The position numbers were made by a program, and so were the translations under genes. Shown piece by piece: positions 5,478 to 28,128 of a stretch of 32,000 nt of DNA (position 1 is the stretch's first letter; each line of letters starts with the position of its first letter). This DNA comes from Pelagibacteraceae bacterium AG-430-E20. GTDB lineage: Bacteria; Pseudomonadota; Alphaproteobacteria; Pelagibacterales; Pelagibacteraceae. The notes beneath the pieces are model-generated. The model made no database searches. It saw only the letters and a list, made by a program, of their open reading frames with translations, and was not told the DNA's origin. The stretch spans positions 43,149 through 75,148 of the forward strand of contig QCOF01000004.1 in assembly GCA_003209915.1 (NCBI GenBank), written 5' to 3'.

Positions 5478-6161
5478 ATGTCAGCACATGTTTTTATTGC
5501 TGAAGATGAAACACCAATAGTAACTTTATTAAAATACAATTTAGAAAAAGAGGGCCATAAGGTAAGTTTTTCTGAAAATGGAGAGGAAGCACTTAAATTA
5601 ATTAAAGATAAGCAACCTGATTTAATACTTTTGGATTGGATGCTGCCAGATCTTTCTGGAGTGGATCTTTGTAAAAATTTAAAGAAGGATAAAAAATTTA
5701 GTGATATACCAATAATAATGCTAACTGCTAAAGGCGAGGAAGCAGATAAAATTAAAGCATTTGACACAGGTGCAGACGATTATGTGACAAAACCGTTTAG
5801 TCAAAAAGAACTTAATGCTAGAATAAAATCTCTCCTAAGAAGGTCTAAACCTCAATCTTCAGTGGACGTTGTGGAATTTACTGATTTAAAAATAGATAGA
5901 GTAACAAAACGTGTCTACAGAAATAATAAAGAAATATCCTTAGGACCAACTGAATTTAAATTATTAGATTTTTTTATTAAAAACCCTAAAAGAGTTTATT
6001 CACGAGAACAACTTTTAAATAATGTTTGGGGTGAAAATATCTATGTAGAGTCTCGAACGGTTGATGTTCATATAAGAAGATTGAGACAAGCTATAAATAT
6101 AGAAAAAACTAAACCATTAATAAGAACTGTTAGATCGGCAGGTTATTCTTTAGAGTCCTGA
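5478..6161 (+). CDS. phoB: OmpR-family phosphate response regulator PhoB
   Basis: Receiver domain (FIAEDE, LLDWMLPDLSG, MLTAKG) plus winged-helix output (RTVDVHIRRLR, RTVRSAGY). It lies directly after phoU. No sensor kinase gene is present in the window. Confidence 0.94.
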   Translation: MSAHVFIAEDETPIVTLLKYNLEKEGHKVSFSENGEEALKLIKDKQPDLILLDWMLPDLSGVDLCKNLKKDKKFSDIPIIMLTAKGEEADKIKAFDTGADDYVTKPFSQKELNARIKSLLRRSKPQSSVDVVEFTDLKIDRVTKRVYRNNKEISLGPTEFKLLDFFIKNPKRVYSREQLLNNVWGENIYVESRTVDVHIRRLRQAINIEKTKPLIRTVRSAGYSLES

Positions 6162-6667: not shown

Positions 6668-6680
6668 TATTTGTAATTAT

Positions 6681-11537: not shown

Positions 11538-11581
11538 TGTAATAAATTTGTAATATTTTTGTAACATTAATGAAACAATAA
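11538..11581 (+). promoter_or_regulatory. Candidate multi-repeat Pho box plus -10 upstream of phnX
   Basis: TGTAAT (11538), TGTAAT (11549), TGTAAC (11560) and TGAAAC (11571) are all spaced exactly 11 bp. CAATAA (11576-11581) lies 10 nt after the third repeat. The array begins 2 nt from the start codon of the divergent TPR gene. Confidence 0.6.
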
Positions 11582-11681: not shown

Positions 11682-12476
11682 ATGAAAAATACAAAAATAG
11701 AGGCAATTGTTTTTGATTTAGCTGGCACTCTAATAGATTTTGGAAGTCAAGCACCATCTAAAGTACTTATTCATATTTTTAATGAAAATGGAATACCAAT
11801 TACTAAAAAAGAAGCTATTGGCCCTATGGGCATTGAAAAAAAAGCACATATAAGTCAATTAATCTATTCAAAGAAAATAAATCTACTGTGGAAAAAAAAG
11901 TATAAAAAAAAACCCAGTAAGAATGATATAAATAAATTATTTAAACTTTTTAATCCTGAGCTTAAAAAAATTATTAAAAAACACTCTAAATTAATTACAG
12001 GGAGTAAAAAAACTATTAAATTTATAAAAAAGAAAAAAATTAAAATAGCTACAAATACTGGATACTCTGATGATATTTTAAAAATTATATTGTCGGAATT
12101 AAAAAAACAAAAATTTACACCAGACATTGCATATGGTTCTTCATATGCAAAAATTGGAAGACCAACAGCAGAGATAATATACAAAATTTTTTCTGACCTA
12201 AATATAACAAAGGGATCAAGTTGTATAAAAGTAGACGATACTATTCCTGGACTATTAGAGGGAGTAAATGCTGGGATGTGGGTAGTAGGTGTCATATTTT
12301 CAGGTAATGAATTTGGTAAAACAGAGGTCGAATTTAACAAACTATCTTACAGAGATAAATTTAAATTTAGAAAAATGATCAAGAATAAATTTAAAAAAGT
12401 AGGTGCTGACTATGTAATAGATACAATTAAAGATTTACCTAAAGTAATTAAATTAATTGAGAAAAGAATTACGTAA
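11682..12476 (+). CDS. phnX: Phosphonoacetaldehyde hydrolase (phosphonatase), HAD family
   Basis: IEAIVFDLAGTLIDFGSQAP (HAD motif I), GPMGIEKKAHI (Schiff-base Lys region) and KVDDTIPGLLEGVNAGMWVVGV (motif IV). It appears colinear with my recollection of Bacillus PhnX over the full 264 aa. Confidence 0.87.
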   Translation: MKNTKIEAIVFDLAGTLIDFGSQAPSKVLIHIFNENGIPITKKEAIGPMGIEKKAHISQLIYSKKINLLWKKKYKKKPSKNDINKLFKLFNPELKKIIKKHSKLITGSKKTIKFIKKKKIKIATNTGYSDDILKIILSELKKQKFTPDIAYGSSYAKIGRPTAEIIYKIFSDLNITKGSSCIKVDDTIPGLLEGVNAGMWVVGVIFSGNEFGKTEVEFNKLSYRDKFKFRKMIKNKFKKVGADYVIDTIKDLPKVIKLIEKRIT

Positions 12477-12478
12477 AA

Positions 12479-13156
12479 TCACCTATTGAAAAGCATTTTT
12501 TTAACCACAAATATTGCTAATATTGCACCTAGTAATTCTGCAATAATAAATAAAGGTGTATTTAAATAATTGATACCAGTAAATGTGTCTGTAAAGGTTC
12601 TGGCTATAGCAACGGCAGGATTTGCAAATGAGGTTGATGAAGTAAACCAGTATCCTGCGGTTATGTAGAATCCAACACACGCAGCGGTTACAACTTTTCC
12701 ACTTTTCATTGATCCAAAAATTACTAAAATTAATCCAAACGTAGCTATTATTTCTGCAACAAATATATAAATACCATTTCTAGTTTTTGATGATAATTCA
12801 TATATAGGTAATTCAAAAAAAAAATTCGCTAATCCCACACCTACAAGGCAACCTGATATTTGTGAAAAAATATAAATATGAATTAATTTAAATTTTAGTT
12901 TTCCTGTAAAAACCATACTTAAACTCACAAATGGATTAAAATGAGCTCCTGATATATCAGAAAACACTGTTATAAGAACAAATAAACCTGCTCCTGTTGC
13001 AATTGTATTTGCTAATAACATAACTGCAAAATCGTCAGTAAGATTTTGAGCCATTATACCAGAACCAACAACTATCATCACTAGGAAGCAACTACCTAAG
13101 AATTCACTATAGATTATTTTTTTTTTGCTATTTTTCATAATTTTTAATCCATTCAT
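12479..13156 (-). CDS. MIP-family channel (aquaporin/aquaglyceroporin), candidate arsenite channel
   Basis: 225 aa, six TM segments, two half-helix boxes SGAHFNPFVS (NPF variant) and FANPAVAIAR. It overlaps the arsC 3' end. ATG at 13138 is an alternative start. Confidence 0.85.
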   Translation of the reverse strand: MNGLKIMKNSKKKIIYSEFLGSCFLVMIVVGSGIMAQNLTDDFAVMLLANTIATGAGLFVLITVFSDISGAHFNPFVSLSMVFTGKLKFKLIHIYIFSQISGCLVGVGLANFFFELPIYELSSKTRNGIYIFVAEIIATFGLILVIFGSMKSGKVVTAACVGFYITAGYWFTSSTSFANPAVAIARTFTDTFTGINYLNTPLFIIAELLGAILAIFVVKKMLFNR

Positions 13157-13583
13157 TAATTCTAGTTTCTAGTTTAGAATAAGTTTTATGTATTTCTAAT
13201 GAAATTAGTTCTTCTTTATTTGTTTTTTCACTATTTTCTAATTCATTAATAATATGAACAGGATCTTCAATATCCCAATGTATTATTTTTTCTGGAGATG
13301 GCCACACCGGACAAACTTCATTACTAGCATTGTTACATACAGTAAATACCTGGTCAAATTTTGTTTTTTCATCTAAAAATTTATTGAAGTTTTTTGATGA
13401 TAGATTTTTTGTTTCAAAATTATTTTCATTAAGATACTTGATGACATATTTATTAATTATTCCAGATGGTTTGCTACCTGCACTATAACCAGCAAATTTA
13501 TCTTTGTGATATTTATTAACCACACTTTCAGCTAATATGCTTCTATGAGAATTTCCTGTACAAACAAATAAAAGTTTTTTCAT
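13128..13583 (-). CDS. arsC: Arsenate reductase, LMW-PTPase (thioredoxin-coupled) type
   Basis: P-loop LFVCTGNSHRS (C-x5-R-S) plus a downstream Cys pair (TVCNNASNEVCP). 151 aa. Confidence 0.87.
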   Translation of the reverse strand: MKKLLFVCTGNSHRSILAESVVNKYHKDKFAGYSAGSKPSGIINKYVIKYLNENNFETKNLSSKNFNKFLDEKTKFDQVFTVCNNASNEVCPVWPSPEKIIHWDIEDPVHIINELENSEKTNKEELISLEIHKTYSKLETRINEWIKNYEK

Positions 13584-13642: not shown

Positions 13643-13675
13643 TGTAACAAAACTGAAACATTAGTAATTTAATAA
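13643..13675 (+). promoter_or_regulatory. Candidate Pho box plus -10, leaderless geometry (PhnZ-like gene)
   Basis: TGTAAC (13643) and TGAAAC (13654) are 11 bp apart. A 10-nt spacer follows, then TAATAA (13670-13675), which ends 6 nt before the ATG at 13682. Confidence 0.55.
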
Positions 13676-13681: not shown

Positions 13682-14233
13682 ATGCATACGATTTCTAGCA
13701 TTAATAAATTATTTAAAATTATAGAAAATATTGGGTCTGATAAACAATATGGAAACGAAAATGTTTCACAACTTGAACATGCAATTCAATGTGGATTATT
13801 GGCAAAAAAAAATAATGAGAGTGATTTTTTCATTACTGCTGCTTTGTTTCATGATATTGGCCACCTAATTATCAATGATAAAGAGTCTATAAAAAAAGGA
13901 ATAGATAAAAAACATGAAAACTCTGGATCTCTTTTTCTATCTAAATTTTTCCCTGATGATGTTACAAAATTAATAAAAGGACATGTTCCGGCTAAAAGAT
14001 ATTTGGTTTATTGTGAAAAAGATTATTATGAATCTTTATCTATTGCTTCAAAACAAAGTTTAGATGTACAAGGAGGAAGTTTTTCCAAAGAGGAAGCAAA
14101 CGAATTTATTAAACAACCTTTTATGCAAGATGCAGTTAGGTTAAGAAAATATGATGATCTTGCTAAAATTGAAAATTTAGAAATTCCAAATATAAATTAT
14201 TTTTACAAACACGTAGAGAGAAGCTTTAAATAA
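13682..14233 (+). CDS. phnZ: HD-domain diiron oxygenase, PhnZ-like (C-P bond-cleaving family)
   Basis: 183 aa. Metal-ligand pattern QLEH, FHDIGH, KKHE, KGHVPAKRYLV and KYDD appears colinear with PhnZ as I recall it (QLEHSLQCA, LLHDLGH, GHVAAKRYLV). The QYGNE stretch has the same Y-x-x-E spacing as the PhnZ substrate-contact residues, from memory. Confidence 0.72.
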   Translation: MHTISSINKLFKIIENIGSDKQYGNENVSQLEHAIQCGLLAKKNNESDFFITAALFHDIGHLIINDKESIKKGIDKKHENSGSLFLSKFFPDDVTKLIKGHVPAKRYLVYCEKDYYESLSIASKQSLDVQGGSFSKEEANEFIKQPFMQDAVRLRKYDDLAKIENLEIPNINYFYKHVERSFK

Positions 14234-15398
14234 ACTTTTTTTTGTTTAAAAAAATTGCTGTTACGTTACCAAAAATTGCTAAAACAAAAAATACAAATAT
14301 TAACAAATCATATCCTCCTACATTCCATACCAACGAACCAATCCATGGACCAGCAATACTACCAATCATATATTGTAAAGCTAAAATACCATGAATATTG
14401 CCAAAGTTTTTTTGGCCAAAAGTATCATTTTGAACCAGAGGTTTTAAAATAGCCATACTGCCATATGCTGAACTATTAAATAAAACAAATAAAAATGCTA
14501 AGTAATGATTAATATTTATAAAGTATAAAAATATCATTCCAACTACCATCGAGTAAAAACAAATTACAAATAATTTTAAATTTGATTTATCACTTCCATA
14601 TATCATAACTAAAATTCTACCTATTACTTGTCCTGGTCCAAACAGAGATGCTGTTAATACAGCTTGGGATAGGCTCATGCCTTTTTCCTGCAACATTGGA
14701 ATTACATGAGTTGTAATAGCACCAATATTAAATCCAATAACAAACAATGAAAAACTAAATAACCAAAATCTAAAATCTTTAAGTATTATTTTAATTTTTG
14801 AATTTTGATCTGTTTTCTTTTCAATTTTTTTAAATTTTTTTATAATTATATTTTTGAAACCAAAATAATTAGCTGGTGAACTAATCAATATATTTAATAT
14901 TCCAAAAATAAATACAGTAAATCTCCAGTCATATTGTTCTGTTAAATAAGTAGCAGTAGGAAATGTGTATGTGCTTGCAAATCCAGCAAATAAAGTAATT
15001 ATTGCAATAGATGTTTTGGCCTTTGATTTTAAATTAATAGTAATGACACTAAAAAGCATCGTATAAAGACAGCCACCCGAGGTTGCACTTACAAGTATCC
15101 ATGCAACTAAAAATTCAGTGTATGTGTTTACTAAGGATAGATAGATTACACTTAATCCCAGCAATATTGGACTTACCCACATCATAGGAAAACTAAGATT
15201 TTTATCAACAAACTTACCAAGAATGGGTAACAATAAACTATGTACAACCAAGCCTAGAGAATAAATAAAAGTTAAATTATTCCTTGAAATACTAAGTTCA
15301 TTTTCCCAAGTTAGCAACAACGCTGAGAACAGATACATACAACTGCTGTAACAAAAGGTAACTGATATACCTATTAAAAATGCAGACAAATATTTCAC
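14226..15398 (-). CDS. MFS transporter (unknown substrate)
   Basis: 390 aa with about 12 predicted TM helices and a central hydrophilic loop (KKFKKIEKKTDQNSK). GTG start. Its 3' end overlaps the PhnZ-like gene by 8 nt, convergently. Confidence 0.8.
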   Translation of the reverse strand: MKYLSAFLIGISVTFCYSSCMYLFSALLLTWENELSISRNNLTFIYSLGLVVHSLLLPILGKFVDKNLSFPMMWVSPILLGLSVIYLSLVNTYTEFLVAWILVSATSGGCLYTMLFSVITINLKSKAKTSIAIITLFAGFASTYTFPTATYLTEQYDWRFTVFIFGILNILISSPANYFGFKNIIIKKFKKIEKKTDQNSKIKIILKDFRFWLFSFSLFVIGFNIGAITTHVIPMLQEKGMSLSQAVLTASLFGPGQVIGRILVMIYGSDKSNLKLFVICFYSMVVGMIFLYFININHYLAFLFVLFNSSAYGSMAILKPLVQNDTFGQKNFGNIHGILALQYMIGSIAGPWIGSLVWNVGGYDLLIFVFFVLAIFGNVTAIFLNKKKFI

Positions 15399-15894: not shown

Positions 15895-17295
15895 TTATCT
15901 TACAATTAATTGATCTGTTCCAATTAGTATTCTTCTAAGCCAAGCAGATAATCTATCCATAAATATTACTACAGCCAAAACTAATATTGCCATGTAGGCG
16001 ACATTTTCAAAATCATTTCCAGTACCTAGTGCACCTAAAAATTGTAAACCAATTCCTCCTGCGCCCATTGCACCTATTATTACGGCTCCTCTAGTATTTG
16101 ACTCTAAATAGTATAAGGATTGAGATACAAAAATTGGAAGTATTTGAGGAATTATACCAAATCTATGTTGTAGAAATTTGCTAGCCCCTGTAGATTGAAC
16201 TCCTTCTTGTTGTTTCTTCTCAGTATTTTCAATTGCTTCAGAATACAATTTCCCTAACGTACCTGTATCGGTAAAACCAATCGCAAAAATACCAGTGAAG
16301 GGTCCTGGACCAAAAGCTCTCAAAAATATTAAACTCCAAATTAAAAAGTCTATTCCTCTTAAAGTATCAAATAATCTTCTCAACGTAAATCTTAGAGCTT
16401 TAATAGGTGTAACGTTGTATGCAGCAAGGAATGACAAGGGCAGAGCCATTACTGTAGCAAACATTGTCCCAAGTACAGCCATAACTATTGTTTCGAGCAT
16501 TGCCCACCAAACTCTACCGTGCATAAATGCTTCATTATCCTTAATCTCTGTTAAGAAAAGTTTTAAATTAGACATTTCAGGAACAACTCTTTCTTTAGAA
16601 AAAGTCAAACCTAATGCTTCGAAAAAGCTATATGGTTCTAACGGACTTGAGAAATCAAACCAAAAATATTTCCATCCTATGCTGTAACGATGAATTTCTA
16701 CTTTTTTAGGATATACCTGAACTCTCTCATGTAAAGTTGGTCTAAATTCAACTCTGTTTTCTGTAATTCTAAAACCTTTTAAGTCATCTTTAGCTAAGTC
16801 TTCCGAACCTACTACGTAAGGTTTACCATTTGTGTTTAATTTTATGGTAAAATTTCTTTCGTATTTAGGGAAATTTACAATCTCAACCCTATCTTTGTAT
16901 AATATTGCTTTACCTTCATTATTAAATTCAATGACATTTCCAATATTATCAGAATTTTTATAAAACCATTCTGGAATTGATTTATCAAGATTGTCTCTTC
17001 CATAAACACTTCTATAGTTACCCTCAAAAGCTATTTTAATATCGTCAGGATTTTCCCATTTCATAGTAACATGATCTTTGTGGGCGTATGTGTCTAAAAC
17101 AAACATCGCCGCATTTTGTGGCTTCCATTTTTTTGGAATATCCACAACATCTAAAGTAAAAAAACCTATTATTAAATATATTAAAATGAGAAAGAAAATT
17201 ATTTGACCTTTTATTCTACTTTTTCTAGCTTGATTGAATGTGTCAGGAAATAATTTTCGAATATTATCTCTTTCAATTGCTAAACTAGAACTCAT
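15895..17295 (-). CDS. phnE: Phosphonate ABC permease PhnE paralog with large periplasmic insertion
   Basis: The C-terminal 200 aa or so form a PhnE-type core (LYSEAIENTEKKQQEGVQSTGAS EAA loop, AMGAGGIG). The N-terminus has one TM and then a hydrophilic stretch of about 210 aa. It overlaps the upstream phnE by 4 nt. Confidence 0.87.
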   Translation of the reverse strand: MSSSLAIERDNIRKLFPDTFNQARKSRIKGQIIFFLILIYLIIGFFTLDVVDIPKKWKPQNAAMFVLDTYAHKDHVTMKWENPDDIKIAFEGNYRSVYGRDNLDKSIPEWFYKNSDNIGNVIEFNNEGKAILYKDRVEIVNFPKYERNFTIKLNTNGKPYVVGSEDLAKDDLKGFRITENRVEFRPTLHERVQVYPKKVEIHRYSIGWKYFWFDFSSPLEPYSFFEALGLTFSKERVVPEMSNLKLFLTEIKDNEAFMHGRVWWAMLETIVMAVLGTMFATVMALPLSFLAAYNVTPIKALRFTLRRLFDTLRGIDFLIWSLIFLRAFGPGPFTGIFAIGFTDTGTLGKLYSEAIENTEKKQQEGVQSTGASKFLQHRFGIIPQILPIFVSQSLYYLESNTRGAVIIGAMGAGGIGLQFLGALGTGNDFENVAYMAILVLAVVIFMDRLSAWLRRILIGTDQLIVR

Positions 17296-18161
17296 TGATT
17301 TACTCCAATTAAATTATGTCTCCAATATGCAGATAAATAATCCAATGCAATTATCGTACCAACCAACAAGAACATACATGCCAAAACATCAGCTCCATAA
17401 TTCCATTGTATTAAAGCTGCTAACATTTCTCCAATTCCACCCGCACCAACAAAACCTAATATTGTAGATTCTCTAACATTAATTTCTAATCTTAAAATTC
17501 CATAACTTAGAAAAAGAGGAAGCACTTGTGGAAGAACTGAGAACCTTATTTTTTGTGTCCAAGTCGCACCAACAGAACTTAAACCCTCAATAGGTTTTCC
17601 ATCACAATTTTCTATAGCTTCCGTGAATAATTTACCAAGTGCTCCTGCAGTATGTATTGTTATGGCAATCACTGCTGGTAAAGATGATTTACCCATCAAA
17701 TATAAAAACACCATTGCTATTATTAATGTTGGAAATGATCTTGTCACATCCATAAAAAATTTTGTAAATTGAATAACTCTTTTATTTCTTATTAAATTTC
17801 TACTAGAGAAGATTGCAAAAATAACTGCCAAAACAAATCCGATCGAAGTTGAAAATAATGCAATATTTAATGTAGTAATTAATTCAGGTATGTATTTTAC
17901 AACTCTTGGCCAATATTTCCATCCCATCTCAAATGTATCAATAAATAAATCTCTTGGATAATTAAAAAAATTAGCTATACCTCTACCAAAAGATCCTGCA
18001 TTTGCCTCTAACGATACCAGGGTACCACTAAAAAAAACTAATATTAAAATTGCAATACCTAATAGTGAGGATCTAGTTCTCTGGTTTGTTAATTTTTTTA
18101 AATTAACTTCAATTTGTTCTAAATTTGCTGGTAATGCTTTTGACATAATATTAAAAACCAA
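17292..18161 (-). CDS. phnE: Phosphonate ABC permease PhnE
   Basis: 289 aa with EAA loop LFTEAIENCDGKPIEGLSSVGAT and GAGGIGEML. The TTG start sits in the U-tract of the upstream hairpin, so the ATG five codons further in is an alternative. Confidence 0.92.
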   Translation of the reverse strand: MVFNIMSKALPANLEQIEVNLKKLTNQRTRSSLLGIAILILVFFSGTLVSLEANAGSFGRGIANFFNYPRDLFIDTFEMGWKYWPRVVKYIPELITTLNIALFSTSIGFVLAVIFAIFSSRNLIRNKRVIQFTKFFMDVTRSFPTLIIAMVFLYLMGKSSLPAVIAITIHTAGALGKLFTEAIENCDGKPIEGLSSVGATWTQKIRFSVLPQVLPLFLSYGILRLEINVRESTILGFVGAGGIGEMLAALIQWNYGADVLACMFLLVGTIIALDYLSAYWRHNLIGVNQ

Positions 18162-18196
18162 AAAATTAGAGGCAAAGATTTTAAGTCTTTGCCTCT
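18153..18196 (-). terminator. Hairpin plus U-tract (attenuator) between phnD and phnE
   Basis: The minus strand reads AGAGGCAAAGA-cttaaaa-TCTTTGCCTCT (11-bp perfect stem) followed by AATTTTTTGGTTTTT. It starts about 15 nt after the phnD stop. Coordinates may be off by 1 (see rejected note on 18120-18601). Confidence 0.6.
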
Positions 18197-18211
18197 AAAT
18201 GGGGTACTTAA

Positions 18212-19162
18212 TTAATTATTTTTTTGTGCTTCAATTTTAGCTTTTCTAGCAGCTACAACCGACTCATAAAAAGAATGATCTACCGGAACCCATTTTTTAA
18301 CAATACCGTTTGCAACGTTTTCGCTGCACTTCGGATCGTTTTCGTGTATCCATTGTTTCATTCCAATCATTACTTGATGTGCTCTAACAGGTAAAAAAGT
18401 AGGCATCACAATTGGACCATTAGGAATTAATTTTGAAGACCAAATTTGAACAATGTCGTCCATATTTAAAATCCCTTTATCAACCATTTTTCTTAAATTC
18501 CCTGACGAATATCCTTCTTCCCAGCTACCAACACCAGATACCCATGTTACACCAGCATCAACATCACCATTCATTACCGCTAATACATTGTTTTCATGCC
18601 CACCAGAAAATTGTGTTTTTGAAAAATATGTATCTGGGTCCATACCCATAGCCTTTAATTCAATTGACGGAATTAAAAAACCTGATGTAGAGTTAGGGTC
18701 AGCCCAACCAAAGGATTTACCTTTAAGGTCTGCCATTGATTTAATTCCAGATGATTTAGTTGCTACTGCAACAGAGTAGTAACCCATATCACCAGTTGGC
18801 TGCATTCTTGTTAGTACTGGTACTACTGCAGTTGGATCTTTTAAATACATACCTGCGTATCCTGAAGAACCGAACCAAGTGTAATCTAGATTACCACCTA
18901 GCATCGATTCCATTGTTCCAGCGTAGTCTTTAAAAGTAAAAAATTTAGCTGGTACACCATAAGCGGCTTCGATATACGGCATGAAACATTCATTTCTAGC
19001 TATAATATCTTGTGCTGCTTCGTCACCTAAAAAACCAACTCTAAACTCTGGTTGATATTTACTTAAGTCCATTTTTGGACCCGTGTAAGTTACCGCATTA
19101 GCTTGGGTTGAAAAAAACACCATAGCTAAAAGTGCAATAACTCTTGTTAGTTTATTAAACAT
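18212..19162 (-). CDS. phnD: Phosphonate ABC substrate-binding protein PhnD
   Basis: 316 aa with a signal peptide (VIALLAMVFFSTQANA) and PhnD-type motifs (YYSVAVA, NSTSGFLIPS). It has an unusually strong SD for this window (AAAGGAGACAATT-ATG). Position is between phnC and phnE. Confidence 0.93.
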   Translation of the reverse strand: MFNKLTRVIALLAMVFFSTQANAVTYTGPKMDLSKYQPEFRVGFLGDEAAQDIIARNECFMPYIEAAYGVPAKFFTFKDYAGTMESMLGGNLDYTWFGSSGYAGMYLKDPTAVVPVLTRMQPTGDMGYYSVAVATKSSGIKSMADLKGKSFGWADPNSTSGFLIPSIELKAMGMDPDTYFSKTQFSGGHENNVLAVMNGDVDAGVTWVSGVGSWEEGYSSGNLRKMVDKGILNMDDIVQIWSSKLIPNGPIVMPTFLPVRAHQVMIGMKQWIHENDPKCSENVANGIVKKWVPVDHSFYESVVAARKAKIEAQKNN

Positions 19163-19228
19163 AATTGTCTCCTTTTTATAATTTTAGTCTCTCGACTTAT
19201 TTGTATTTGTAACGATGAGTTATTGATC

Positions 19229-20053
19229 TCATGCAGTTGCAAATTCTTTCTCAACATCTCCATTTATCTTTTTTTTTGTTTTAAGCTCAGTGGATGTTAC
19301 TTGTGGTTCAAAAGCTTCATCAGCTTCTGCACCATAAATTTCTCTTGCAAGTTTGTCTGATAATTTTTCTGGTAAATCATCAAAGACAATTGCGCCATCT
19401 TTCATTCCAATAATACGGTCACAATAGGTTTTTGCTGTATCTAGGGTATGAAGATTTGAAATGACCGTTAAATTTTTTTCATCATGAATTTTTCTTAATG
19501 ATTCCATTACCATTCTTGCATTCATTGGGTCTAAAGATGCTATAGGTTCATCTGCCAAAATCATTTTAGGATTTTGCATTAATGCTCTGCATATAGCTAC
19601 ACGTTGTTGTTGACCACCAGATAAAGTTTCTGCTCTTTGAAGTGCAGTATTAGCCATACCAAGGGTGTTAAGCAAAATTAAAGCATCAGCTCTCTCATCT
19701 CGAGAAAACATTTTTAATGATGCTCTAAATGATCCTTGATAATTTAATCTACCTAAAATGACATTTGTTAATACATCTAGTCTCGGTACTAAGTTAAATT
19801 GTTGAAAAATCATTGCACAATTTCTCTGCCAGGATCTTTTTTCTTTGCTTTTTAGTTGTAATATATTTTGACCATCGATTTCTACTTCTCCATCTGTTGC
19901 ATCAGTGAGTCGATTTATGATCCTGAGAAGAGTTGATTTACCTGCACCTGATCTTCCAATAATTCCTATCATTTGAGGTTTATTGACCTCAAATGAAACA
20001 TTTTTAACAGCGTGATTATTACCAAAGAATTTATTTACTTTGCTTATTCGCAT
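19229..20053 (-). CDS. phnC: Phosphonate ABC ATPase PhnC
   Basis: Walker A GRSGAGKST, signature LSGGQQQRV, Walker B ILADEP. It is first in the phnCDEE array. Confidence 0.95.
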   Translation of the reverse strand: MRISKVNKFFGNNHAVKNVSFEVNKPQMIGIIGRSGAGKSTLLRIINRLTDATDGEVEIDGQNILQLKSKEKRSWQRNCAMIFQQFNLVPRLDVLTNVILGRLNYQGSFRASLKMFSRDERADALILLNTLGMANTALQRAETLSGGQQQRVAICRALMQNPKMILADEPIASLDPMNARMVMESLRKIHDEKNLTVISNLHTLDTAKTYCDRIIGMKDGAIVFDDLPEKLSDKLAREIYGAEADEAFEPQVTSTELKTKKKINGDVEKEFATA

Positions 20054-20172: not shown

Positions 20173-20883
20173 CTAAACTTTAACAAGTATCTGAATTTTA
20201 GACCCGTCAAAATAACTTTCACTAAGCTCTATTGGTTTTTGGTTGAAGTCAACATTAATGGATGTTGTTTTTATTAAAGGTTTTCCAACATCAATATTTA
20301 AAAAATTTGATTTTATTTTGTCTGAAATTTCTGCGTTTATTAACGTTTTAGATCTTATTATTTTTTTAACATTTAATAAATTAAATGTTTTAGTTACAGA
20401 CTGTTTTTTAACAAAATGATTAATAAATTTTGGAAATCTTTTATGTGGTATAGATCTAAATGTTATTACTGAAGGAGAGTTATTTATATAACCAATACTA
20501 TTTATTCTAGTCACTTTTTCATTTTTTTTTAAATCTAACTCTTTTTTTTCAAATAAATTGCATTCTGCAATATCAAAACTCTTAATTTCAATTCGTGCTG
20601 ATTTGTTTTCTTCAAGAATATTTTCAGTAAAACGAACATTTTTGCTTATTGAATAACTAATTTTTGATGATTTAACAAAAACACCCAAACCTCTTTTTGA
20701 ATATATTAAATTATCATTTTTAAGTTCTTTAAAAGCTCTTCTTATCGTGTGTCTATTTACATTAAATTGTTTTGCATAGTCACCTTCGGAATCTAATTTT
20801 TTATTAATTTTGTACTTGTTTAAAACAATTTCTCTTTTGATTGAATTGTATATTTCTTTCCAAAGCAAATCTTTTGTTGTCAT
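20173..20883 (-). CDS. phnF: GntR/HutC-family regulator PhnF
   Basis: N-terminal wHTH (YAKQFNVNRHTIRRAFKELKNDNLIYSKRGLGVFV) plus a C-terminal UTRA-sized domain. It is divergent from phnG and upstream of phnC. Confidence 0.85.
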   Translation of the reverse strand: MTTKDLLWKEIYNSIKREIVLNKYKINKKLDSEGDYAKQFNVNRHTIRRAFKELKNDNLIYSKRGLGVFVKSSKISYSISKNVRFTENILEENKSARIEIKSFDIAECNLFEKKELDLKKNEKVTRINSIGYINNSPSVITFRSIPHKRFPKFINHFVKKQSVTKTFNLLNVKKIIRSKTLINAEISDKIKSNFLNIDVGKPLIKTTSINVDFNQKPIELSESYFDGSKIQILVKV

Positions 20884-20929
20884 AAAATTTTAATAAATAA
20901 TTTATTGAAATTTTTTTTAATTTTGTTAC

Positions 20930-20945
20930 TTGTCTAGTTGTATAG
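20930..20945. promoter_or_regulatory. Candidate PhnF (HutC-type) operator
   Basis: Tandem TTGTCTAG-TTGTATAG in the phnF/phnG divergent spacer. The core GT(C/A)TAG resembles HutC-family half-sites (GTCTAGAC type). GTCTAGTT recurs at 20155-20162 upstream of phnC. Confidence 0.35.
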
Positions 20946-20949
20946 TATT

Positions 20950-21393
20950 ATGCAAAATGAATCAAGAAAACAATGGTTAAGTTATTTAGCAACAGCAGAT
21001 GAAAATTATCTCATTTCACTTTGGGATAATTTAAATATGAAAATAGAATATAATTGGTTAAGAGAACCTGAGATTGGCAGTATTATGGTTCAAGGAAAAG
21101 CAGGCGCCACAGGTGATAATTTTAATGTTGGAGAAGTAACTATAACGAGATGTTCATTAAATTTAGATAAAAAAATTCAAGGACATGGTTATGTTCAGGG
21201 TAGAAATAAATATAAATCCAAAATTGCAGCTTTGTGTGATGCATTGATGCAAACTGAAAAAAAAGAAATAATTAAAAGAAATATAATAGATAAATTAATT
21301 AAATATAAAAATAACAAAAGAAATGAAATATTATCTAAAACAGAAGCTACTAAGGTTGATTTTTTTACCTTGGTGAGAGGTGAGGATAAATAA
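20950..21393 (+). CDS. phnG: C-P lyase core subunit PhnG
   Basis: About 147 aa. The N-terminal RKQWLSYLA resembles my recollection of E. coli RQHWMSVLA. It is first in a colinear phnGHIJKL array. ATG at 20950 is preferred over TTG at 20938. Confidence 0.85.
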   Translation: MQNESRKQWLSYLATADENYLISLWDNLNMKIEYNWLREPEIGSIMVQGKAGATGDNFNVGEVTITRCSLNLDKKIQGHGYVQGRNKYKSKIAALCDALMQTEKKEIIKRNIIDKLIKYKNNKRNEILSKTEATKVDFFTLVRGEDK

Positions 21394-21396
21394 GTT

Positions 21397-21951
21397 ATGG
21401 AAGTTGTTTCTAAAAAAAACAATTCTCAAACAAGTGCTGATTATTTTAGAAGTATTTTGTTTGCAACTTCATATCCTGGTTCGATCGAAACATTAGACAA
21501 TATAAATTCGCCTTCGAACATGTTTTCAGCCAGTTGCTCTATTATAAAAACTTTTTGTGACAGTTATTCAAATATTTTTTTAGGTCGTAATATTAATAAT
21601 TCAGAAACTATTGATTGGATTAAATTTAATACAGGTGCAAACATTACAGATAAAAAAAATGCAAATTTTGCAATTGGTACTTGGGATGATCTTTTACCAC
21701 TAGGTGAATTTAAAAAGGGGGACGAGCAAAATCCTGATCAATCGTGTACTATTATTTGCCAGTCTCAATTTGAAAAACCAAATGCCATAATTACTGGTCC
21801 TGGTATTAAAAGTTCTAAAAGTATATTTTTACCTGATAGAGAGATTATAAAAAAAAATAACCAGCAATTTCCATTAGGACTTGATTTTTATTTTGTTGAT
21901 AATGAAAAATTCTATTCAATACCAAGATCATTAAAAATAGGAGAGCTATAA
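21397..21951 (+). CDS. phnH: C-P lyase core subunit PhnH
   Basis: 184 aa. Correct size and position between phnG and phnI, with 3-nt and 1-nt spacers. Confidence 0.8.
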   Translation: MEVVSKKNNSQTSADYFRSILFATSYPGSIETLDNINSPSNMFSASCSIIKTFCDSYSNIFLGRNINNSETIDWIKFNTGANITDKKNANFAIGTWDDLLPLGEFKKGDEQNPDQSCTIICQSQFEKPNAIITGPGIKSSKSIFLPDREIIKKNNQQFPLGLDFYFVDNEKFYSIPRSLKIGEL

Positions 21952-21952
21952 A

Positions 21953-23032
21953 ATGTATGTATCTGTAAAAGGTGGAGAAAAGGCAATCAATAATGCACAT
22001 TCTTGGTTATCTGAAATAAGAAGAGGCGATGTAAATATAGCAGAACTAAATATTAAACAAATTAGTGAACAACTAACTTTAAGTGTTGATAGAGTTATGT
22101 CAGAAGGATCTTTATATGACAAAGATTTGTCTGCTCTTGCAATCAAACAGTCTAGAGGTGACTTGATTGAGGCAATTTTCCTAATGAGAGCCTATAGAAC
22201 TACTTTACCTAGAATTGGTTCAAGCAAACCTATCGAAACTAGCAAAATGTTATGTCTAAGAAGAATATCTGCAACATTTAAAGATATCCCAGGTAAACAA
22301 AAGTTAGGCCCAACATTTGACTACACACACCGTTTACTTGACTTCAAACTTCTTGCTGATGGTGAGTATGAAAAAGCTAAAATCGAAAAATATGATGATA
22401 AAGAAATCCCCCATGTTTTAAGCTTTTTAAATAAAGAAGGATTAATTCAGAAAGAAATACCTAGTGGCAAAACATCTAAGGATATTACAAGAAACCCAAT
22501 TAATTTTCCTTTAACAAGATCTGAACGACTGCAATCTCTTTCAAGAGGAGATGAAGGTTTTCTTCTTGGTTTAGCTTACTCAACACAGAGAGGGTATGCT
22601 AGAAACCATGCATTTGTTGGTGAATTAAGAACTGGTTACGTTGAAGTTCAATTTGAAATTCCAGAATTAGGTATAGAAATAAATATTGCTGATGTCATGT
22701 TTACTGAGTGTGAGTCAGTAAACCAATTTAAAGGTAGTAAAAAAATACCTGCTCAATTTACTCGTGGATATGGTTTAGTTTTTGGTCAATTAGAGAGAAA
22801 AGCAATTTCAATGGCTTTGGTTGATAGATCAATGAGATGGAAAGAATTTGGTGAGGAGTACTTGGGTGTTGCTGCTCAAGATGAAGAATTTGTTATATCA
22901 CATTGTGATAATATTCAAGCTACTGGTTTTTTGGAACATATCAAATTACCTCATTATGTAGATTTTCAGGCGGAATTGGATTTAGTAAGAAAAATTAGAG
23001 AAGAATATAATAAAAATGAACAACGTACTTAA
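21953..23032 (+). CDS. phnI: C-P lyase core subunit PhnI (nucleosidase component)
   Basis: 359 aa. Correct size and position. It overlaps phnJ by 17 nt. Confidence 0.92.
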   Translation: MYVSVKGGEKAINNAHSWLSEIRRGDVNIAELNIKQISEQLTLSVDRVMSEGSLYDKDLSALAIKQSRGDLIEAIFLMRAYRTTLPRIGSSKPIETSKMLCLRRISATFKDIPGKQKLGPTFDYTHRLLDFKLLADGEYEKAKIEKYDDKEIPHVLSFLNKEGLIQKEIPSGKTSKDITRNPINFPLTRSERLQSLSRGDEGFLLGLAYSTQRGYARNHAFVGELRTGYVEVQFEIPELGIEINIADVMFTECESVNQFKGSKKIPAQFTRGYGLVFGQLERKAISMALVDRSMRWKEFGEEYLGVAAQDEEFVISHCDNIQATGFLEHIKLPHYVDFQAELDLVRKIREEYNKNEQRT

Positions 23033-23897
23033 ATTTAAAAATAAAAAAGCTAATGTTGTAGCTCAAGATGAAATTTATAATTTTGCTTATTTAGACGAAA
23101 ATACAAAAAGAATGATAAGAAGAGCTTTAATCAAAGCTCTTTGTATACCAGGTTATCAGGTCCCATTTTCATCCAGAGAAATGCCAATGCCTTACGGATG
23201 GGGTACAGGCGGTGTGCAAGTAACTTCATCTTGTTTAACAACAGACGATGTCCTTAAAGTTATTGATCAGGGAGCAGATGATACTACTAATGCAGTTTCA
23301 ATAAGAAATTTTTTTAAAAAAACAGCAAATATTGAGACTACTGAAACAACTGGAGATGCTTCAATAATACAAACAAGACATAGAATACCAGAGAATCAAT
23401 TAAATGAAAAACAGATACTTGTTTATCAAGTTCCAATTCCGGAGCCACTTGCTTTTCTAGAACCTAGATATCAAGAGACAAAAAAAATGCACGCTTTATC
23501 AGAATACGGAATTATGCATGTTAAGCTTTATGAGGATATCACTAAAAATGGACATATAGAAACCGCATATGCGTATCCAGTGAAAACAAATGATAGATAC
23601 ATAATGGATCCATCGCCTATACCAAAATTTGATAATCCAAAGATGAATAACAATCCTGCTATACAATTGTTTGGTGCCGGTAGAGAACAAAGAATTTATG
23701 CAATACCACCATATACTGAAGTAACGAGTCTTGATTTTGAAGATTATCCATTTGATCCTTCAAAAGCACCACATAAATGTTCTATTTGTGGATCAAATGA
23801 TAGTTTTTTAGACGAAATAATCACTGACGATGATGGTAATAGATCGTTCATATGTTCAGATACAAATTACTGCAATCAAAGAATGAAAGATAAGTAA
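23016..23897 (+). CDS. phnJ: C-P lyase radical SAM subunit PhnJ
   Basis: YNFAYLDENTKRMIRRA, IPGYQVPF (glycyl-radical Gly region), REMPMPYGWGTGG, and a C-terminal C-x2-C-x21-C-x5-C cluster (CSICGS...FICSDTNYC). The spacing matches the E. coli PhnJ cluster as I recall it. Confidence 0.96.
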   Translation: MNNVLKFKNKKANVVAQDEIYNFAYLDENTKRMIRRALIKALCIPGYQVPFSSREMPMPYGWGTGGVQVTSSCLTTDDVLKVIDQGADDTTNAVSIRNFFKKTANIETTETTGDASIIQTRHRIPENQLNEKQILVYQVPIPEPLAFLEPRYQETKKMHALSEYGIMHVKLYEDITKNGHIETAYAYPVKTNDRYIMDPSPIPKFDNPKMNNNPAIQLFGAGREQRIYAIPPYTEVTSLDFEDYPFDPSKAPHKCSICGSNDSFLDEIITDDDGNRSFICSDTNYCNQRMKDK

Positions 23898-24665
23898 ATG
23901 GAACCAATTTTATCTGTTCAAAATTTAAATAAATATTATGGCGATCAAGTTGGATGTAAAAATATGAATATGACATTGTATCCAGGTGAAGTCGTAGGAG
24001 TAGTAGGAGAGTCTGGCTCAGGAAAAACAACTTTTATAAATTCAATATCGGGAAATCTGAACCCTGATCGTGGAAAAATCCTAATTAATAAAGATAATGA
24101 AATTATTAATTTCTTAGAAATATCAGAGTCTTTGAAAAGATTATTGATAAGAACTGAATTAGCTTTTGTTCACCAAAATCCTAGAGATGGTTTAAGATTG
24201 GACGTAAGTGCTGGCGGAAATATTAGTGAAAGATTAATGTCTATTGGACAAAGAAATTATGGAAAGATTAGGCAAACTATTTTTAAATGGTTAGATAAAG
24301 TGGAAATCGATAAAAGTAGGGTAGATGATTTTCCAAGAACATTTTCTGGTGGAATGTTACAGAGATTACAAATAGCAAAAAACTTGGTTACGAGTCCTAA
24401 AATAATTTTCATGGATGAACCAACAGGAGGACTTGATGTTTCTGTTCAAGCAAAAATTTTAGATTTGTTAAGAAAATTAGTTAGAGAATTAAATTTATCA
24501 GTTGTCATTGTTTCTCACGATCTTGCAGTTATTAGATTGTTAGCTGATAAAATTATTGTGATGAAAAATGGTGAGGCTGTTGAGTCAGGGCTTTGCGATC
24601 AAGTATTAGATGATCCACAACATTCTTATACTCAGTTATTAGTCAGCTCAGTACTTCAGGTTTAA
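23898..24665 (+). CDS. phnK: C-P lyase ATP-binding subunit PhnK
   Basis: Walker A GESGSGKTT, signature FSGGMLQRL, Walker B IFMDEPTGGLD. The start abuts the phnJ stop (TAAATG). Confidence 0.93.
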   Translation: MEPILSVQNLNKYYGDQVGCKNMNMTLYPGEVVGVVGESGSGKTTFINSISGNLNPDRGKILINKDNEIINFLEISESLKRLLIRTELAFVHQNPRDGLRLDVSAGGNISERLMSIGQRNYGKIRQTIFKWLDKVEIDKSRVDDFPRTFSGGMLQRLQIAKNLVTSPKIIFMDEPTGGLDVSVQAKILDLLRKLVRELNLSVVIVSHDLAVIRLLADKIIVMKNGEAVESGLCDQVLDDPQHSYTQLLVSSVLQV

Positions 24666-24666
24666 A

Positions 24667-25344
24667 ATGATTGAACTTAATAATATTACAAAAAAATTTA
24701 CACTTCATAATCAAGGAAGAACAAACATATCAGTTTTTAAAAATTTGAATTTGAAAATTAATCCTGGAGAAATTGTAGCTTTGACAGGACCATCAGGTGT
24801 TGGAAAATCTAGTATTTTAAAAATGATTTATGGAAATTATTTTTTTCAATCGGGAGAAATTAAAATTAATAATTACAAAATAGATCATAAATATCCTAGA
24901 AATATTATTGAACTTAGAAAAAATACAATAGGATATGTTAGTCAATTTCTAAGAGTGATACCTCGTGTTCCTACAATTGAAATTGTTATGGAGCCATTAT
25001 TAAAAATAAATTTTGATCAAGAGGAAGTTCGTGAAAGAGCTGAAAAAATTTTACTAGATCTTAATATCGATAAGAATTTATGGAATTTATCGCCACTTAC
25101 TTTTTCAGGAGGTGAGCAACAGAGAGTAAATGTTGCTAGGGGATTGATTAGAAATTATCCATGCTTGCTACTAGATGAACCAACCGCTAGCTTGGACAAT
25201 GTTAACAAAGATATTGTTTTGAATTTGATTAATGAAAAAAAAGATAAAGGATCTTCAATAATTGGTATTTTTCATGATGAATCTTCACGTAAATATTTAA
25301 ATGCTAGAGAAATAGATATTACAAAAATATCACATGCAAACTAA
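24667..25344 (+). CDS. phnL: C-P lyase ATP-binding subunit PhnL
   Basis: Walker A GPSGVGKSS, signature FSGGEQQRV, Walker B LLLDEPTASLD. It lies 1 nt after phnK. Confidence 0.9.
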   Translation: MIELNNITKKFTLHNQGRTNISVFKNLNLKINPGEIVALTGPSGVGKSSILKMIYGNYFFQSGEIKINNYKIDHKYPRNIIELRKNTIGYVSQFLRVIPRVPTIEIVMEPLLKINFDQEEVRERAEKILLDLNIDKNLWNLSPLTFSGGEQQRVNVARGLIRNYPCLLLDEPTASLDNVNKDIVLNLINEKKDKGSSIIGIFHDESSRKYLNAREIDITKISHAN

Positions 25345-25870
25345 CGGTCAGCTTTTTGTAGTCGTTGGACCATCCGGCTCAGGAAAAGATACATTATTAA
25401 AAAAAGTAATAAATAAAATTCCTAATTCCATTTTGGTTAAAAGGTACATTACCAGGAAAAAAGATATTAAAAATGAAGATCATTACAGTATATCAATTAA
25501 AAATTTTGAAGATAAAATTTCAAAAAAATTTTTCTTCATCTACTGGAAAGCTCATGGTTTTTCATACGGTATTCCGTACAAAGAAATAAAGAAAATAAAG
25601 CAAGGTAAAAAAGTAATTTTTAATGGTTCTAGAAAAATACTTTTTAAAATAAAAAAAAAGGTTAATAACGTAAAAATAATAAACATTACTGCCTCATCAA
25701 CAATTATAAAAAGGAGACTCGTAAATCGAGCAAGAGAAGACAAAAAATCAATTATTAAAAGGATAAAAAGAAAAATTAATTTACTTCCAAAAAATACAAT
25801 TACAATAATTAATAATAAATCAATATCTATAGGTACAAATAAATTAAAAAAAATAATTTTAGCTGAGTGA
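25334..25870 (+). CDS. phnN: Ribose 1,5-bisphosphate phosphokinase PhnN
   Basis: Guanylate-kinase-like P-loop VVVGPSGSGKDTLL. 178 aa. It overlaps phnL by 11 nt. Confidence 0.85.
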   Translation: MQTNGQLFVVVGPSGSGKDTLLKKVINKIPNSILVKRYITRKKDIKNEDHYSISIKNFEDKISKKFFFIYWKAHGFSYGIPYKEIKKIKQGKKVIFNGSRKILFKIKKKVNNVKIINITASSTIIKRRLVNRAREDKKSIIKRIKRKINLLPKNTITIINNKSISIGTNKLKKIILAE

Positions 25871-26572
25871 AAAATTTTCTAAATTCTCAAACATTCCTTT
25901 TTGGTTTTCACCAAATATATATATTTTATCAAAATCATTTGTTTCATTTAAGATAATTTCTTTGTTTTTTTCGATTTTTTTTAATTCAAAGTACAATTTG
26001 TTTCCTGATACCTCAGATGCAAGGGTCATGTGAAAATTAAATTCTGACATTAAATAGGGATATCCCCATTTATATAAAATACTTAATTGTAATTTACTTA
26101 GTTTAGAGGGATTTCTTCTATCAATTTCTTTTTTTGTAAGAGGTGACCTAAATTTAAATAACTCTCTAACAAGTCTATTTGATAACTTATTAATGTTATT
26201 ATTCTTTTTAGATTGTACAAAAGCATAAAAATTATCAATTTTTTTTAATTTAAATTTATAAAAATTAAATTTTTTATATTTTTTAGCTACAACCTCAATT
26301 TTTTTAAATAATTTTTTTCTATTATAATTATTGTTTAGTTTAAAAGGAGGTATAAGTGTCCCATGAAATCCATATTTTTTTGCCATTAAAATATTATTAT
26401 CTATACTTTTTAAGTTTTTTATTCCAAATCTGTTTAGATAATTAATTCTTTTCTTATTATTTATAAATTTTGCGACAAGGGGATCCCAACCAAACCAATA
26501 TTTGCCAAATTCTTCTAGAACGCTTCCTTTTGGAGGGGCGTAATAAATTGCAAATCTAGAATATTTTTTCAT
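25859..26572 (-). CDS. DUF1045-like phosphonate-cluster protein with 2H-phosphoesterase signature
   Basis: 237 aa. N-terminus RFAIYYAPP, plus two H-x-T motifs (GFHGTLIPPF and NFHMTLASEV) typical of the 2H phosphoesterase fold. It lies between phnN and phnM on the opposite strand. Confidence 0.72.
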   Translation of the reverse strand: MKKYSRFAIYYAPPKGSVLEEFGKYWFGWDPLVAKFINNKKRINYLNRFGIKNLKSIDNNILMAKKYGFHGTLIPPFKLNNNYNRKKLFKKIEVVAKKYKKFNFYKFKLKKIDNFYAFVQSKKNNNINKLSNRLVRELFKFRSPLTKKEIDRRNPSKLSKLQLSILYKWGYPYLMSEFNFHMTLASEVSGNKLYFELKKIEKNKEIILNETNDFDKIYIFGENQKGMFENLENFSLS

Positions 26573-26608
26573 AATTCAACTTATAATACTTATATAAATT
26601 TTCTCTAA

Positions 26609-26641
26609 TTTAAAATATTTGTAACAATTCATCTGTAATAA
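26609..26641 (+). promoter_or_regulatory. Candidate Pho box plus -10, leaderless geometry (phnM)
   Basis: TTTAAA (26609) and TGTAAC (26620) are 11 bp apart. A 10-nt spacer follows, then TAATAA (26636-26641), which ends 6 nt before the ATG at 26648. Confidence 0.45.
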
Positions 26642-26647
26642 AAGTTG

Positions 26648-27784
26648 ATGCATGAATATATTTTAAATAATGCCATGATAATTAAAAAGGATGAGATTAT
26701 TCATGGTCATATAAGGATAAAAGATAACAAGATTATCGATATAAGTAGTGGATTAACTAATAACAAAACTTCAATAGACTGCGAAAAAGATTACATCTCT
26801 CCAGGATTGGTTGAATTACATACTGACAATCTTGAAAGACACATGACACCAAGACCTAAAGTTTCATTTCCAGTAGAAAATGCAATTTTATCTCATGATA
26901 GAGAATTAGCATCTGTTGGAATAACTACAGTTTTTGACGCATTGAGAGTTGGCTCTATTGAAAAAACAGGAAAATATAAAAAATATGCAAAAAACTGTTC
27001 AGATATAATTTCAAATTTTAAAAAGGATAATATTCTCAAGATTGATCATAAAATACATTTAAGAGCCGAAACATGTTCAGAGAATTTGATTGATGAATTA
27101 GATGAATACAATGAAACTCACGATGTAAAACTGATTAGTATTATGGATCATACACCAGGTCAGCGGCAATTTAGAGTTATAGATAAGTATAAAGAATACC
27201 TATCAATTAAACATGGTATGACAGAAAATGAAATGGAAATTCATTTTGATCACTTAAAAAATCTCCAAAAAAAAAATAGCAAGAAACACATAGATAGAAT
27301 TCTAGAATTTAAATCTTCATATGATTGTATTTTAGCTAGTCATGACGACACTACAAAAAATGACGTACATAACTCAAATAAATATGGTGTAAAGTTAGCT
27401 GAATTTCCAACAACATTAGAAGCAGCCAAGACTTCAAAGGAATATGATATTAAAATTATGATGGGTTCTCCTAATTTAATGAGAGGTGGCTCACACTCTG
27501 GTAATATATCAGCAAAAGAGCTTTTAGAAAATGATTGTCTAGATATTTTAAGCTCAGATTATATTCCATCCTCATTAATTATTTCTGTTATTAAATGGGG
27601 TTTAGAAATTGATAATCTTCCGAAAGCATTTGCAGCAGCTAGTCACGCTCCATCTTTAGCTACAAATTTAAATGATAGAGGTTTAATTGACAATAACAAA
27701 AGAGCAGATTTGGTAAGGTTTAAAATTTACCAAAATTTACCTGTTGTAAAAAATGTTTGGTCAAATGGATACCAAGTAAGCTAA
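26648..27784 (+). CDS. phnM: Amidohydrolase-family PhnM (ribose 1-methylphosphonate 5-triphosphate diphosphatase)
   Basis: VELHTDNLE metal-binding start, IMDHTPGQRQF, LASHDD, LSSDY. About 378 aa. ATG at 26648 is preferred over TTG at 26645. Confidence 0.9.
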   Translation: MHEYILNNAMIIKKDEIIHGHIRIKDNKIIDISSGLTNNKTSIDCEKDYISPGLVELHTDNLERHMTPRPKVSFPVENAILSHDRELASVGITTVFDALRVGSIEKTGKYKKYAKNCSDIISNFKKDNILKIDHKIHLRAETCSENLIDELDEYNETHDVKLISIMDHTPGQRQFRVIDKYKEYLSIKHGMTENEMEIHFDHLKNLQKKNSKKHIDRILEFKSSYDCILASHDDTTKNDVHNSNKYGVKLAEFPTTLEAAKTSKEYDIKIMMGSPNLMRGGSHSGNISAKELLENDCLDILSSDYIPSSLIISVIKWGLEIDNLPKAFAAASHAPSLATNLNDRGLIDNNKRADLVRFKIYQNLPVVKNVWSNGYQVS

Positions 27785-28020: not shown

Positions 28021-28128
28021 TTTTCTCCTTAATATTTTTTAAGTCTATTATCGTTTTAATAAACAGTAATATCATATTAAAGATTTGTTAAAATTAATTT
28101 TAATTAATGCTTTGAATAAACTAACAAA

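Follow-up and report, generated by a model that had tools for sequence, protein, structure and literature searches.

A PhnZ/TmpB-type HD-domain oxygenase gene without a linked hydroxylase in a Pelagibacterales phosphate-acquisition island

The 32,000-nucleotide stretch of Pelagibacteraceae bacterium AG-430-E20 analysed here (contig QCOF01000004.1, positions 43,149 to 75,148; hereafter the window) is a very AT-rich phosphate-acquisition island of the type known from HTCC7211 in the Pelagibacterales (SAR11). It contains a gene (13682..14233, + strand) for a 183-residue HD-domain protein that very probably belongs to the PhnZ/TmpB family of diiron oxygenases, enzymes that cleave carbon-phosphorus (C-P) bonds. 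The best explanation of this gene, to which we give a probability of about one half, is that its product is made under phosphate starvation and acts, as a stand-alone oxygenase, on phosphonates already carrying a hydroxyl group at carbon 1. Its phnZ-like identity is already in the literature: Grote et al. 2012 (PMC3448164) described this gene set for HTCC7211 and listed "phnZX" explicitly. The question pursued here concerns the assignment of substrates inside a known enzyme family, where the partnerless state is common, and not a new kind of system.

In a search against the sequences of solved structures, the HD protein had its best match in TmpB, the (R)-1-hydroxy-2-trimethylaminoethylphosphonate oxygenase of Leisingera caerulea (PDB 6NPA; E = 5e-27 over residues 18-180). 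It also matched PhnZ, the (R)-1-hydroxy-2-aminoethylphosphonate (R-HAEP) oxygenase of the uncultured bacterium HF130_AEPn_1 (PDB 4MLM; E = 2.5e-25 over residues 5-180), with about 31% identity over the full length. Enzymes of this kind carry a six-ligand H...HD...H...H...D diiron site and a gating loop with Y24 and E27 in PhnZ or Y30 and E33 in TmpB (PMC8177086). In the alignment, residues H33, H57, D58, H78, H101, and D158 of the SAR11 protein correspond to the PhnZ iron ligands H34, H58, D59, H80, H104, and D161, its H61 to the catalytic H62, and its loop Y23-G-N-E26 to Y24-I-G-E27; TmpB shares the ligands and the YxxE loop. The ligand and loop positions are invariant or nearly so across 29 homologues, and the GHVPAKRYL stretch is near-invariant throughout the family. 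A preliminary description of this DNA had read a six-ligand pattern and a GHV-x-AKRYL signature from the 183-residue reading frame, and both are borne out by the alignment to PhnZ. It had also matched the Y-x-x-E spacing to a residue pair in PhnZ; the pair is present and aligned, but it does not discriminate between substrates, since TmpB and nearly all relatives have it. Residues that we take to contact the phosphonate in PhnZ are mostly kept as well, and they are given no weight in the argument.

Pfam recognises only a generic HD domain in the protein (30.8 bits). Among NCBIfam models the best is TIGR03276, the hypothetical equivalog "phosphonate degradation HD-domain oxygenase," with a borderline 199.7 bits against a trusted cutoff of 214.6, followed by the hydroxymethylphosphonate dioxygenase PhnZ1 (NF052439; 158.6 bits against 300), and the TmpB equivalog NF049941 scores 141.2 bits against 300. 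The name given in IMG is "phosphonate degradation associated HDIG domain protein," and in NCBI one cluster member is called "HD domain-containing protein." Exact and near-exact copies of the protein come from Pelagibacterales single-cell genomes.

The predicted fold agrees with the sequence matches. An AlphaFold model built on an alignment of homologues has a mean predicted local distance difference test (pLDDT) score of 90.9, and its top ten fold matches in the PDB are all PhnZ or TmpB chains (template modelling (TM) scores 0.85-0.92, E about 1e-11). The next matches, HD-GYP proteins and alarmone hydrolases, have E values of at least 0.17 and TM scores below 0.4 (best E 0.17, TM 0.34). PhnZ (PDB 4MLM, 4N6W, 4N71) is the nearest structural system, with equal length, the same all-helical HD fold (TM score up to 0.92, root-mean-square deviation 1.6 Å), an identical set of six ligands, the catalytic His, the YxxE loop, and the AKRYL motif. 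Whether the protein falls with the oxygenases or with ordinary HD phosphohydrolases had been set in advance as a test that could refute the preliminary description; it groups with PhnZ and TmpB, both in sequence (E 1e-25 to 1e-27) and in all ten of the top folds.

The gene is under purifying selection in SAR11, with ratios of nonsynonymous to synonymous substitution rates (dN/dS) of 0.07-0.13 against five SAR11 variants, values on which a reading as a pseudogene or relic was rejected. All ligands and the YxxE residues are retained in 10 of 11 SAR11-type variants, and the YxxE loop is invariant within the SAR11 clade. At locus L001 (10001-10549; loci are cited by our own numbers), in the single-cell genome GCA_902567405.1, the first iron-ligand His is replaced by Tyr (H33Y), where the ten other variants have His; the change may be due to a sequencing error or represent a rare allele that is inactive.

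In the canonical PhnY*-PhnZ and TmpA-TmpB two-gene pathways a hydroxylase gene adjoins the oxygenase gene, and no such adjacent gene is found at the SAR11 locus. Reference hydroxylases for the search were taken from the neighbours of relatives, after our own calling of open reading frames (ORFs) and clustering of the loci. An alignment of homologues was used to scan one genome for each species, which yielded 80 loci of relatives; these are the loci closest to the SAR11 query and do not amount to a census of the family. Two kinds of 2-oxoglutarate oxygenase lie beside the HD genes of these relatives: a GBBH_N+TauD protein that passes the NCBIfam cutoff for TmpA (441 bits against 400), and a PhyH-family protein whose sole NCBIfam match is a sub-cutoff one to the Gimesia methylphosphonate hydroxylase PhnY* (132 bits). 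Hidden Markov models (HMMs) of the two types, run over all six frames of the window, returned only noise (best E 2.9 for the PhyH type and 0.89 for the TmpA type), and no 2-oxoglutarate oxygenase emerged when the larger, non-overlapping ORFs of the window were scanned with Pfam and NCBIfam. On syntenic SAR11 contigs, no PhyH or TauD gene is called in about 5 kb of upstream flank, which holds phoR, an uncharacterised 202-residue ORF, and metallophosphoesterase, glycosyltransferase, and acyltransferase genes, nor is there one in the 10 kb of housekeeping genes downstream. No PhnY*- or TmpA-type gene was seen in nine other SAR11-type loci, six of which are short contigs. The lack of a PhnY or TmpA partner that had been claimed for the 32 kb is thus confirmed, and it extends to about 15 kb of syntenic flank.

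The orphan state is less unusual than the preliminary description implied. Apart from the earlier naming of the gene as phnZ in HTCC7211, a PhnY*- or TmpA-type gene lies near the HD gene in only 15 of the 59 genome loci whose flanks reach 3 kb or more on each side, leaving 44 with none; lack of a linked hydroxylase is the majority state among the retrieved relatives. Wherever a hydroxylase does occur near a relative, it is at most 1.5 kb away or fused to it (17 of 17 loci). The fusions are a single HD+PhyH chain of 474 residues in a Micropepsaceae metagenome-assembled genome (MAG; L009, 3947-5368) and a GBBH_N+TauD+HD chain of 531 residues in Kitasatospora sp. (L082, 8948-10540), bacterial proteins analogous to the fungal PhoF fusion (PMC10574752). 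In two Poribacteria loci (L012, 2500-9966; L014, 712-9945) the HD gene is preceded by three to five PhyH-type, PhnY*-like paralogues, several arranged in tandem; this suggests a battery of hydroxylases feeding a single C-P oxygenase.

To place the SAR11 protein within the family, we built a neighbour-joining tree of 83 loci together with PhnZ and TmpB. TmpB falls inside a clade whose members almost all adjoin TmpA, and the SAR11 protein lies outside this GBBH_N+TauD-linked clade. Members of a second clade (for example L002, L011, L038, L044, and L064) are found within C-P lyase or PhnCDE operons or adjoining them, and have no hydroxylase. Further clades are paired with a TIGR03364 flavin adenine dinucleotide (FAD) oxidoreductase, DUF5690, and a HAD hydrolase; lie in PhnW/PhnA/aldehyde-dehydrogenase (PhnWAY-linked) clusters; or adjoin a major facilitator superfamily (MFS) transporter of a type different from the one at the SAR11 locus. 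Identity to database proteins falls sharply, from 85-97% within SAR11 to 48% or less, and the only intermediate in the genome scan is L007, from a "Proteobacteria" MAG, which is 56% identical and joins the SAR11 clade with 91% bootstrap support. A metagenomic relative at 48% identity likewise has a C-P lyase/PhnCDE context without a hydroxylase. A ureidoglycolate-lyase-like protein (PF04115, about 210-330 residues) is encoded near PhnZ-like genes in seven loci, among them L017, L062, L067, L072, L077, and L007, the closest relative outside SAR11.

The SAR11 clade is a distinct, uncharacterised branch of the known family, not assignable to the PhnZ, PhnZ1, TmpB, or C-P lyase-linked groups. For all its structural likeness to PhnZ, whose gene adjoins the PhyH-type hydroxylase PhnY*, the SAR11 gene has no such neighbour and its clade shows no supported grouping with PhnZ in the tree. 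GmPhnZ1, the hydroxymethylphosphonate dioxygenase of Gimesia maris on which NF052439 is named, is also paired with a PhyH-type methylphosphonate hydroxylase, unlike the SAR11 gene; the Poribacteria protein of L014, which has a PhyH-type neighbour, scores 252 bits on this model, far above the SAR11 protein. With many members of TIGR03276 the SAR11 gene shares the lack of an adjacent hydroxylase and a place beside phnCDE and C-P lyase genes, and IMG gives its cluster members the name of that family. Unlike the TIGR03276 members of C-P lyase operons, the SAR11 protein, at most 48% identical to them, sits on a long separate branch with L007 only.

The regulatory setting suggests when the enzyme would be made. 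A Pho-box-like direct repeat, TGTAAC-AAAA-CTGAAAC (13643..13659, + strand), ends 22 bp before the ATG of the HD gene, within the 98-bp divergent region that this gene shares with arsC. It resembles the Pho box of Escherichia coli, which consists of 7-bp repeats with an 11-bp period. The pattern TGTAAY-N4-YTGWAAY has four matches in the window against 0.06 expected, all on the + strand (before pstS, twice before phnX, and before the HD gene), although the statistic is only indicative, the pattern having been derived post hoc from the same regions on which it was tested. The site is conserved in L001, L005, and L006 although neighbouring bases diverge. The site is in keeping with the Pho-type promoter of its own that had been proposed for the gene, and PhoB, encoded in the window (5478..6161, + strand; TIGR02154, 331 bits against a cutoff of 296), is presumed to act at these sites. 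A sigma-70 promoter scan was uninformative in such AT-rich DNA (14 sites against 15.6 expected). As a transcription unit of its own behind a PhoB-type site, the HD gene would probably be induced by phosphate starvation, together with pstS and phnX. The strongest Pho-box-like array of the window, three to four tandem TTGTAAY repeats with an 11-bp period (11538-11580), lies upstream of phnX, and a further pair with a 5-bp spacer is found just upstream of ppk (about 6660-6680).

No linked PhnY* or TmpA gene is seen in any SAR11-type locus, and we therefore infer that the substrates arrive already 1-hydroxylated. By analogy with PhnZ, and following the mechanism of PhnZ/TmpB-type cleavage as summarised in PMC8177086, the hydroxyl and phosphonate oxygens of a 1-hydroxyalkylphosphonate would coordinate one iron, and the Tyr of the YxxE loop would be driven off the other. 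O2 would then occupy the freed iron, and oxidative cleavage of the C-P bond would yield phosphate and a carboxylic acid. Candidate substrates are hydroxymethylphosphonate (HMP) and R-HAEP, both of which are cleaved by GmPhnZ (PMC10574752). R-HAEP is a natural compound with dedicated catabolic and scavenging enzymes (PMC12366243). HMP, the substrate of GmPhnZ1, is plausible in the SAR11 setting because marine hepD, the marker of HMP synthesis, comes almost entirely from Pelagibacterales (PMC9381506). Import would plausibly, and probably, proceed through the adjacent phosphonate ATP-binding cassette (ABC) transporter encoded by phnE-phnE-phnD-phnC (15895..20053, - strand; PhnE 230.6 and 235.4 bits, PhnD 253.1, PhnC 318.9). 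One of the two PhnE permeases (15895-17295) has 466 residues, with an N-terminal extension of about 220 residues outside the PhnE model. The HD enzyme would in this way extend the range of the phosphonoacetaldehyde hydrolase PhnX (11682..12476, + strand; TIGR01422, 266.5 bits against a cutoff of 220) and of C-P lyase, giving the island three complementary C-P chemistries. The presence of phnX and C-P lyase in the same island had been noted beforehand and is upheld, the C-P lyase genes forming a full cluster.

Several points weigh against this stand-alone explanation, the post hoc origin of the Pho-box pattern among them. The protein scores under all three NCBIfam cutoffs, those of TIGR03276, PhnZ1, and TmpB. 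In the tree, the branch formed by SAR11 and L007 attaches deeper with less than 25% bootstrap support; the substrate is therefore not readable from phylogeny, and an attempt to assign it in this way failed. Only a few neighbours went into the hydroxylase HMMs, so that an oxygenase of a different family might escape them, and the ground they covered is the window, about 15 kb of syntenic flank, and the SAR11-type loci as far as these extend.

In the main alternative, which we consider improbable but worth keeping in view, the HD enzyme would carry out the second step of a classical two-enzyme pathway for 2-aminoethylphosphonate (2-AEP), methylphosphonate, or 2-trimethylaminoethylphosphonate, its 2-oxoglutarate hydroxylase being the product of a distant gene. 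All characterised members of the family work with a hydroxylase (PMC8177086, PMC10574752), pathways are not necessarily mirrored by gene order in the streamlined genomes of SAR11, and PhnX likewise stands in the window without PhnW. Against this, the strict adjacency or fusion in every hydroxylase-bearing relative speaks for linkage wherever a partner exists, and none was seen in the approximately 47 kb of island and flanks or, within their extent, in the nine other SAR11-type loci. In marine surveys, moreover, phnZ is several-fold more frequent than phnY* (9.4% against 1.6% of Global Ocean Sampling (GOS) genomes; PMC3266647). Neither a PhnW-type aminotransferase nor PbfA was found in the 32-kb window, so that two of the island's three C-P cleaving systems, PhnX and the HD enzyme, have no feeder enzymes there.

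A slightly less probable alternative makes the enzyme an accessory of C-P lyase, either taking 1-hydroxyphosphonates that C-P lyase handles poorly or processing an intermediate of its pathway. The phnF regulator, the C-P lyase genes phnGHIJKL-N, a DUF1045/PhnPP-like gene, and phnM occupy 20173..27784 of the window, identified by family scans, HMMs, and synteny, with phnH, phnI, phnJ, and phnL assigned through a syntenic locus and our own HMMs and not by direct library scan. The HD block lies beside phnE..C and C-P lyase in every SAR11-type contig that reaches that far, and the second clade of relatives described above, a coherent one, shares this C-P lyase or PhnCDE context without a hydroxylase; TIGR03276 itself was presumably first defined by its association with C-P lyase. 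The first version, however, overlaps with the stand-alone explanation rather than competing with it, and the second is unlikely because PhnM, PhnN, and the DUF1045/PhnPP-like protein are candidates already present in the window. The SAR11 clade also lacks supported grouping with the C-P lyase-associated clade, and the HD gene stands about 6 kb away from phnG as a transcription unit of its own.

Much further down the scale is an arsenic-related role, in which the enzyme would act together with its two flanking units on an organoarsenical analogue of a hydroxyphosphonate, for instance by cleaving a C-As bond. On one side lies the aqpS-arsC arsenate-resistance pair (12479..13583, - strand; MIP and LMWPc ArsC-like families, with "arsenate reductase ArsC" among the source names), divergent from the HD gene and of a kind described in SAR11 ecotype 1a.3 (PMC6426599). 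On the other lies a convergent MFS gene (14226..15398, - strand; MFS_1), whose 8-nt tail-to-tail overlap with the HD gene is as first described, and for which an alternative ATG start gives the 370-residue product called in relatives. The arsC gene divergently adjoins the HD gene, sharing its promoter region, in all 9 other SAR11-type loci (84-99% protein identity), and the convergent MFS gene is kept in all eight of those whose DNA reaches downstream; the metagenome scan contributed only 6 close loci, giving synteny and not diversity. The relatives in L007 and L046 have ArsC-like genes nearby as well, ArsK (NF033733) is the highest-scoring NCBIfam model for the MFS protein, and SAR11 demethylates dimethylarsenate by an enzyme as yet unidentified (PMC6426599). 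The ArsK score is nevertheless far below its cutoff (130.6 bits against 400), and abundant SAR11 paralogues of the MFS protein, about 69% identical, occur in unrelated contexts beside a sugar ABC transporter or housekeeping genes; on both grounds an identification as an ArsK arsenite-efflux transporter was dropped. Dimethylarsenate is metabolised by HTCC1062 too, a strain of ecotype 1a.1, where no ArsC-aquaporin pair was found (PMC6426599), and a phosphate-starvation island would be expected to carry arsenate-detoxification genes in any case. A reading of the gene as that of an ordinary HD phosphohydrolase, or as the decaying relic of a lost phnYZ pair, is suggested only by the generic Pfam and NCBI descriptions and is largely refuted, since fold and sequence match the oxygenase clade alone and both the retained ligands and YxxE residues and the low dN/dS speak against decay.

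The island begins with pstSCAB-phoU-phoB, a SixA-like gene, ppk1, ppx, and Nudix and TPR genes, and continues with phnX, the aquaporin gene, and the low-molecular-weight (LMW)-phosphatase-type arsC; then come the HD and MFS genes, a gene for a 140-residue secreted protein, phnE-phnE-phnD-phnC, phnF, and phnGHIJKL-N, and at the end the DUF1045/PhnPP-like gene, phnM, znuABC-zur, and the first part of an Ldh_2 gene. The 140-residue protein (15453-15875), encoded divergently from the MFS gene, has a signal-like N-terminal sequence and no Pfam or NCBIfam match, and is 89-98% identical among the SAR11-type loci that reach that far. Between phnM and znuA there is a small membrane ORF of about 79 residues (27785-28128, - strand), whose counterpart in the syntenic contig L094 is called as DUF6552.

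The assignment matters because Pelagibacterales account for about 45% of marine phnZ sequences (PMC9381506), and published estimates of phnZ abundance lie anywhere between less than 1% and about 20% of genomes, according to whether the count includes uncharacterised subclades (PMC10574752, PMC8316502). The published phnZ and phnY* figures show the same imbalance as the relatives examined here, without an explanation for it. We tentatively propose, as a possibility that falls short of an even chance, that the SAR11-type "phnZ" genes in general encode stand-alone scavengers of already hydroxylated phosphonates such as HMP and R-HAEP, rather than one half of a 2-AEP oxidation pathway; a more remote variant would have organoarsenic analogues as substrates, together with the flanking aqpS-arsC and MFS genes. 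If the proposal is true, stand-alone SAR11 phnZ would account for the long-known surplus of phnZ relative to phnY* in ocean metagenomes, and the most abundant marine "phnZ" signal would report a substrate pool other than the one usually assumed. If the SAR11 clade indeed needs no hydroxylase, 2-AEP oxidation would not be what marine phnZ counts measure; they would point instead to a pool of 1-hydroxyphosphonates as a source of phosphorus in phosphate-poor oceans.

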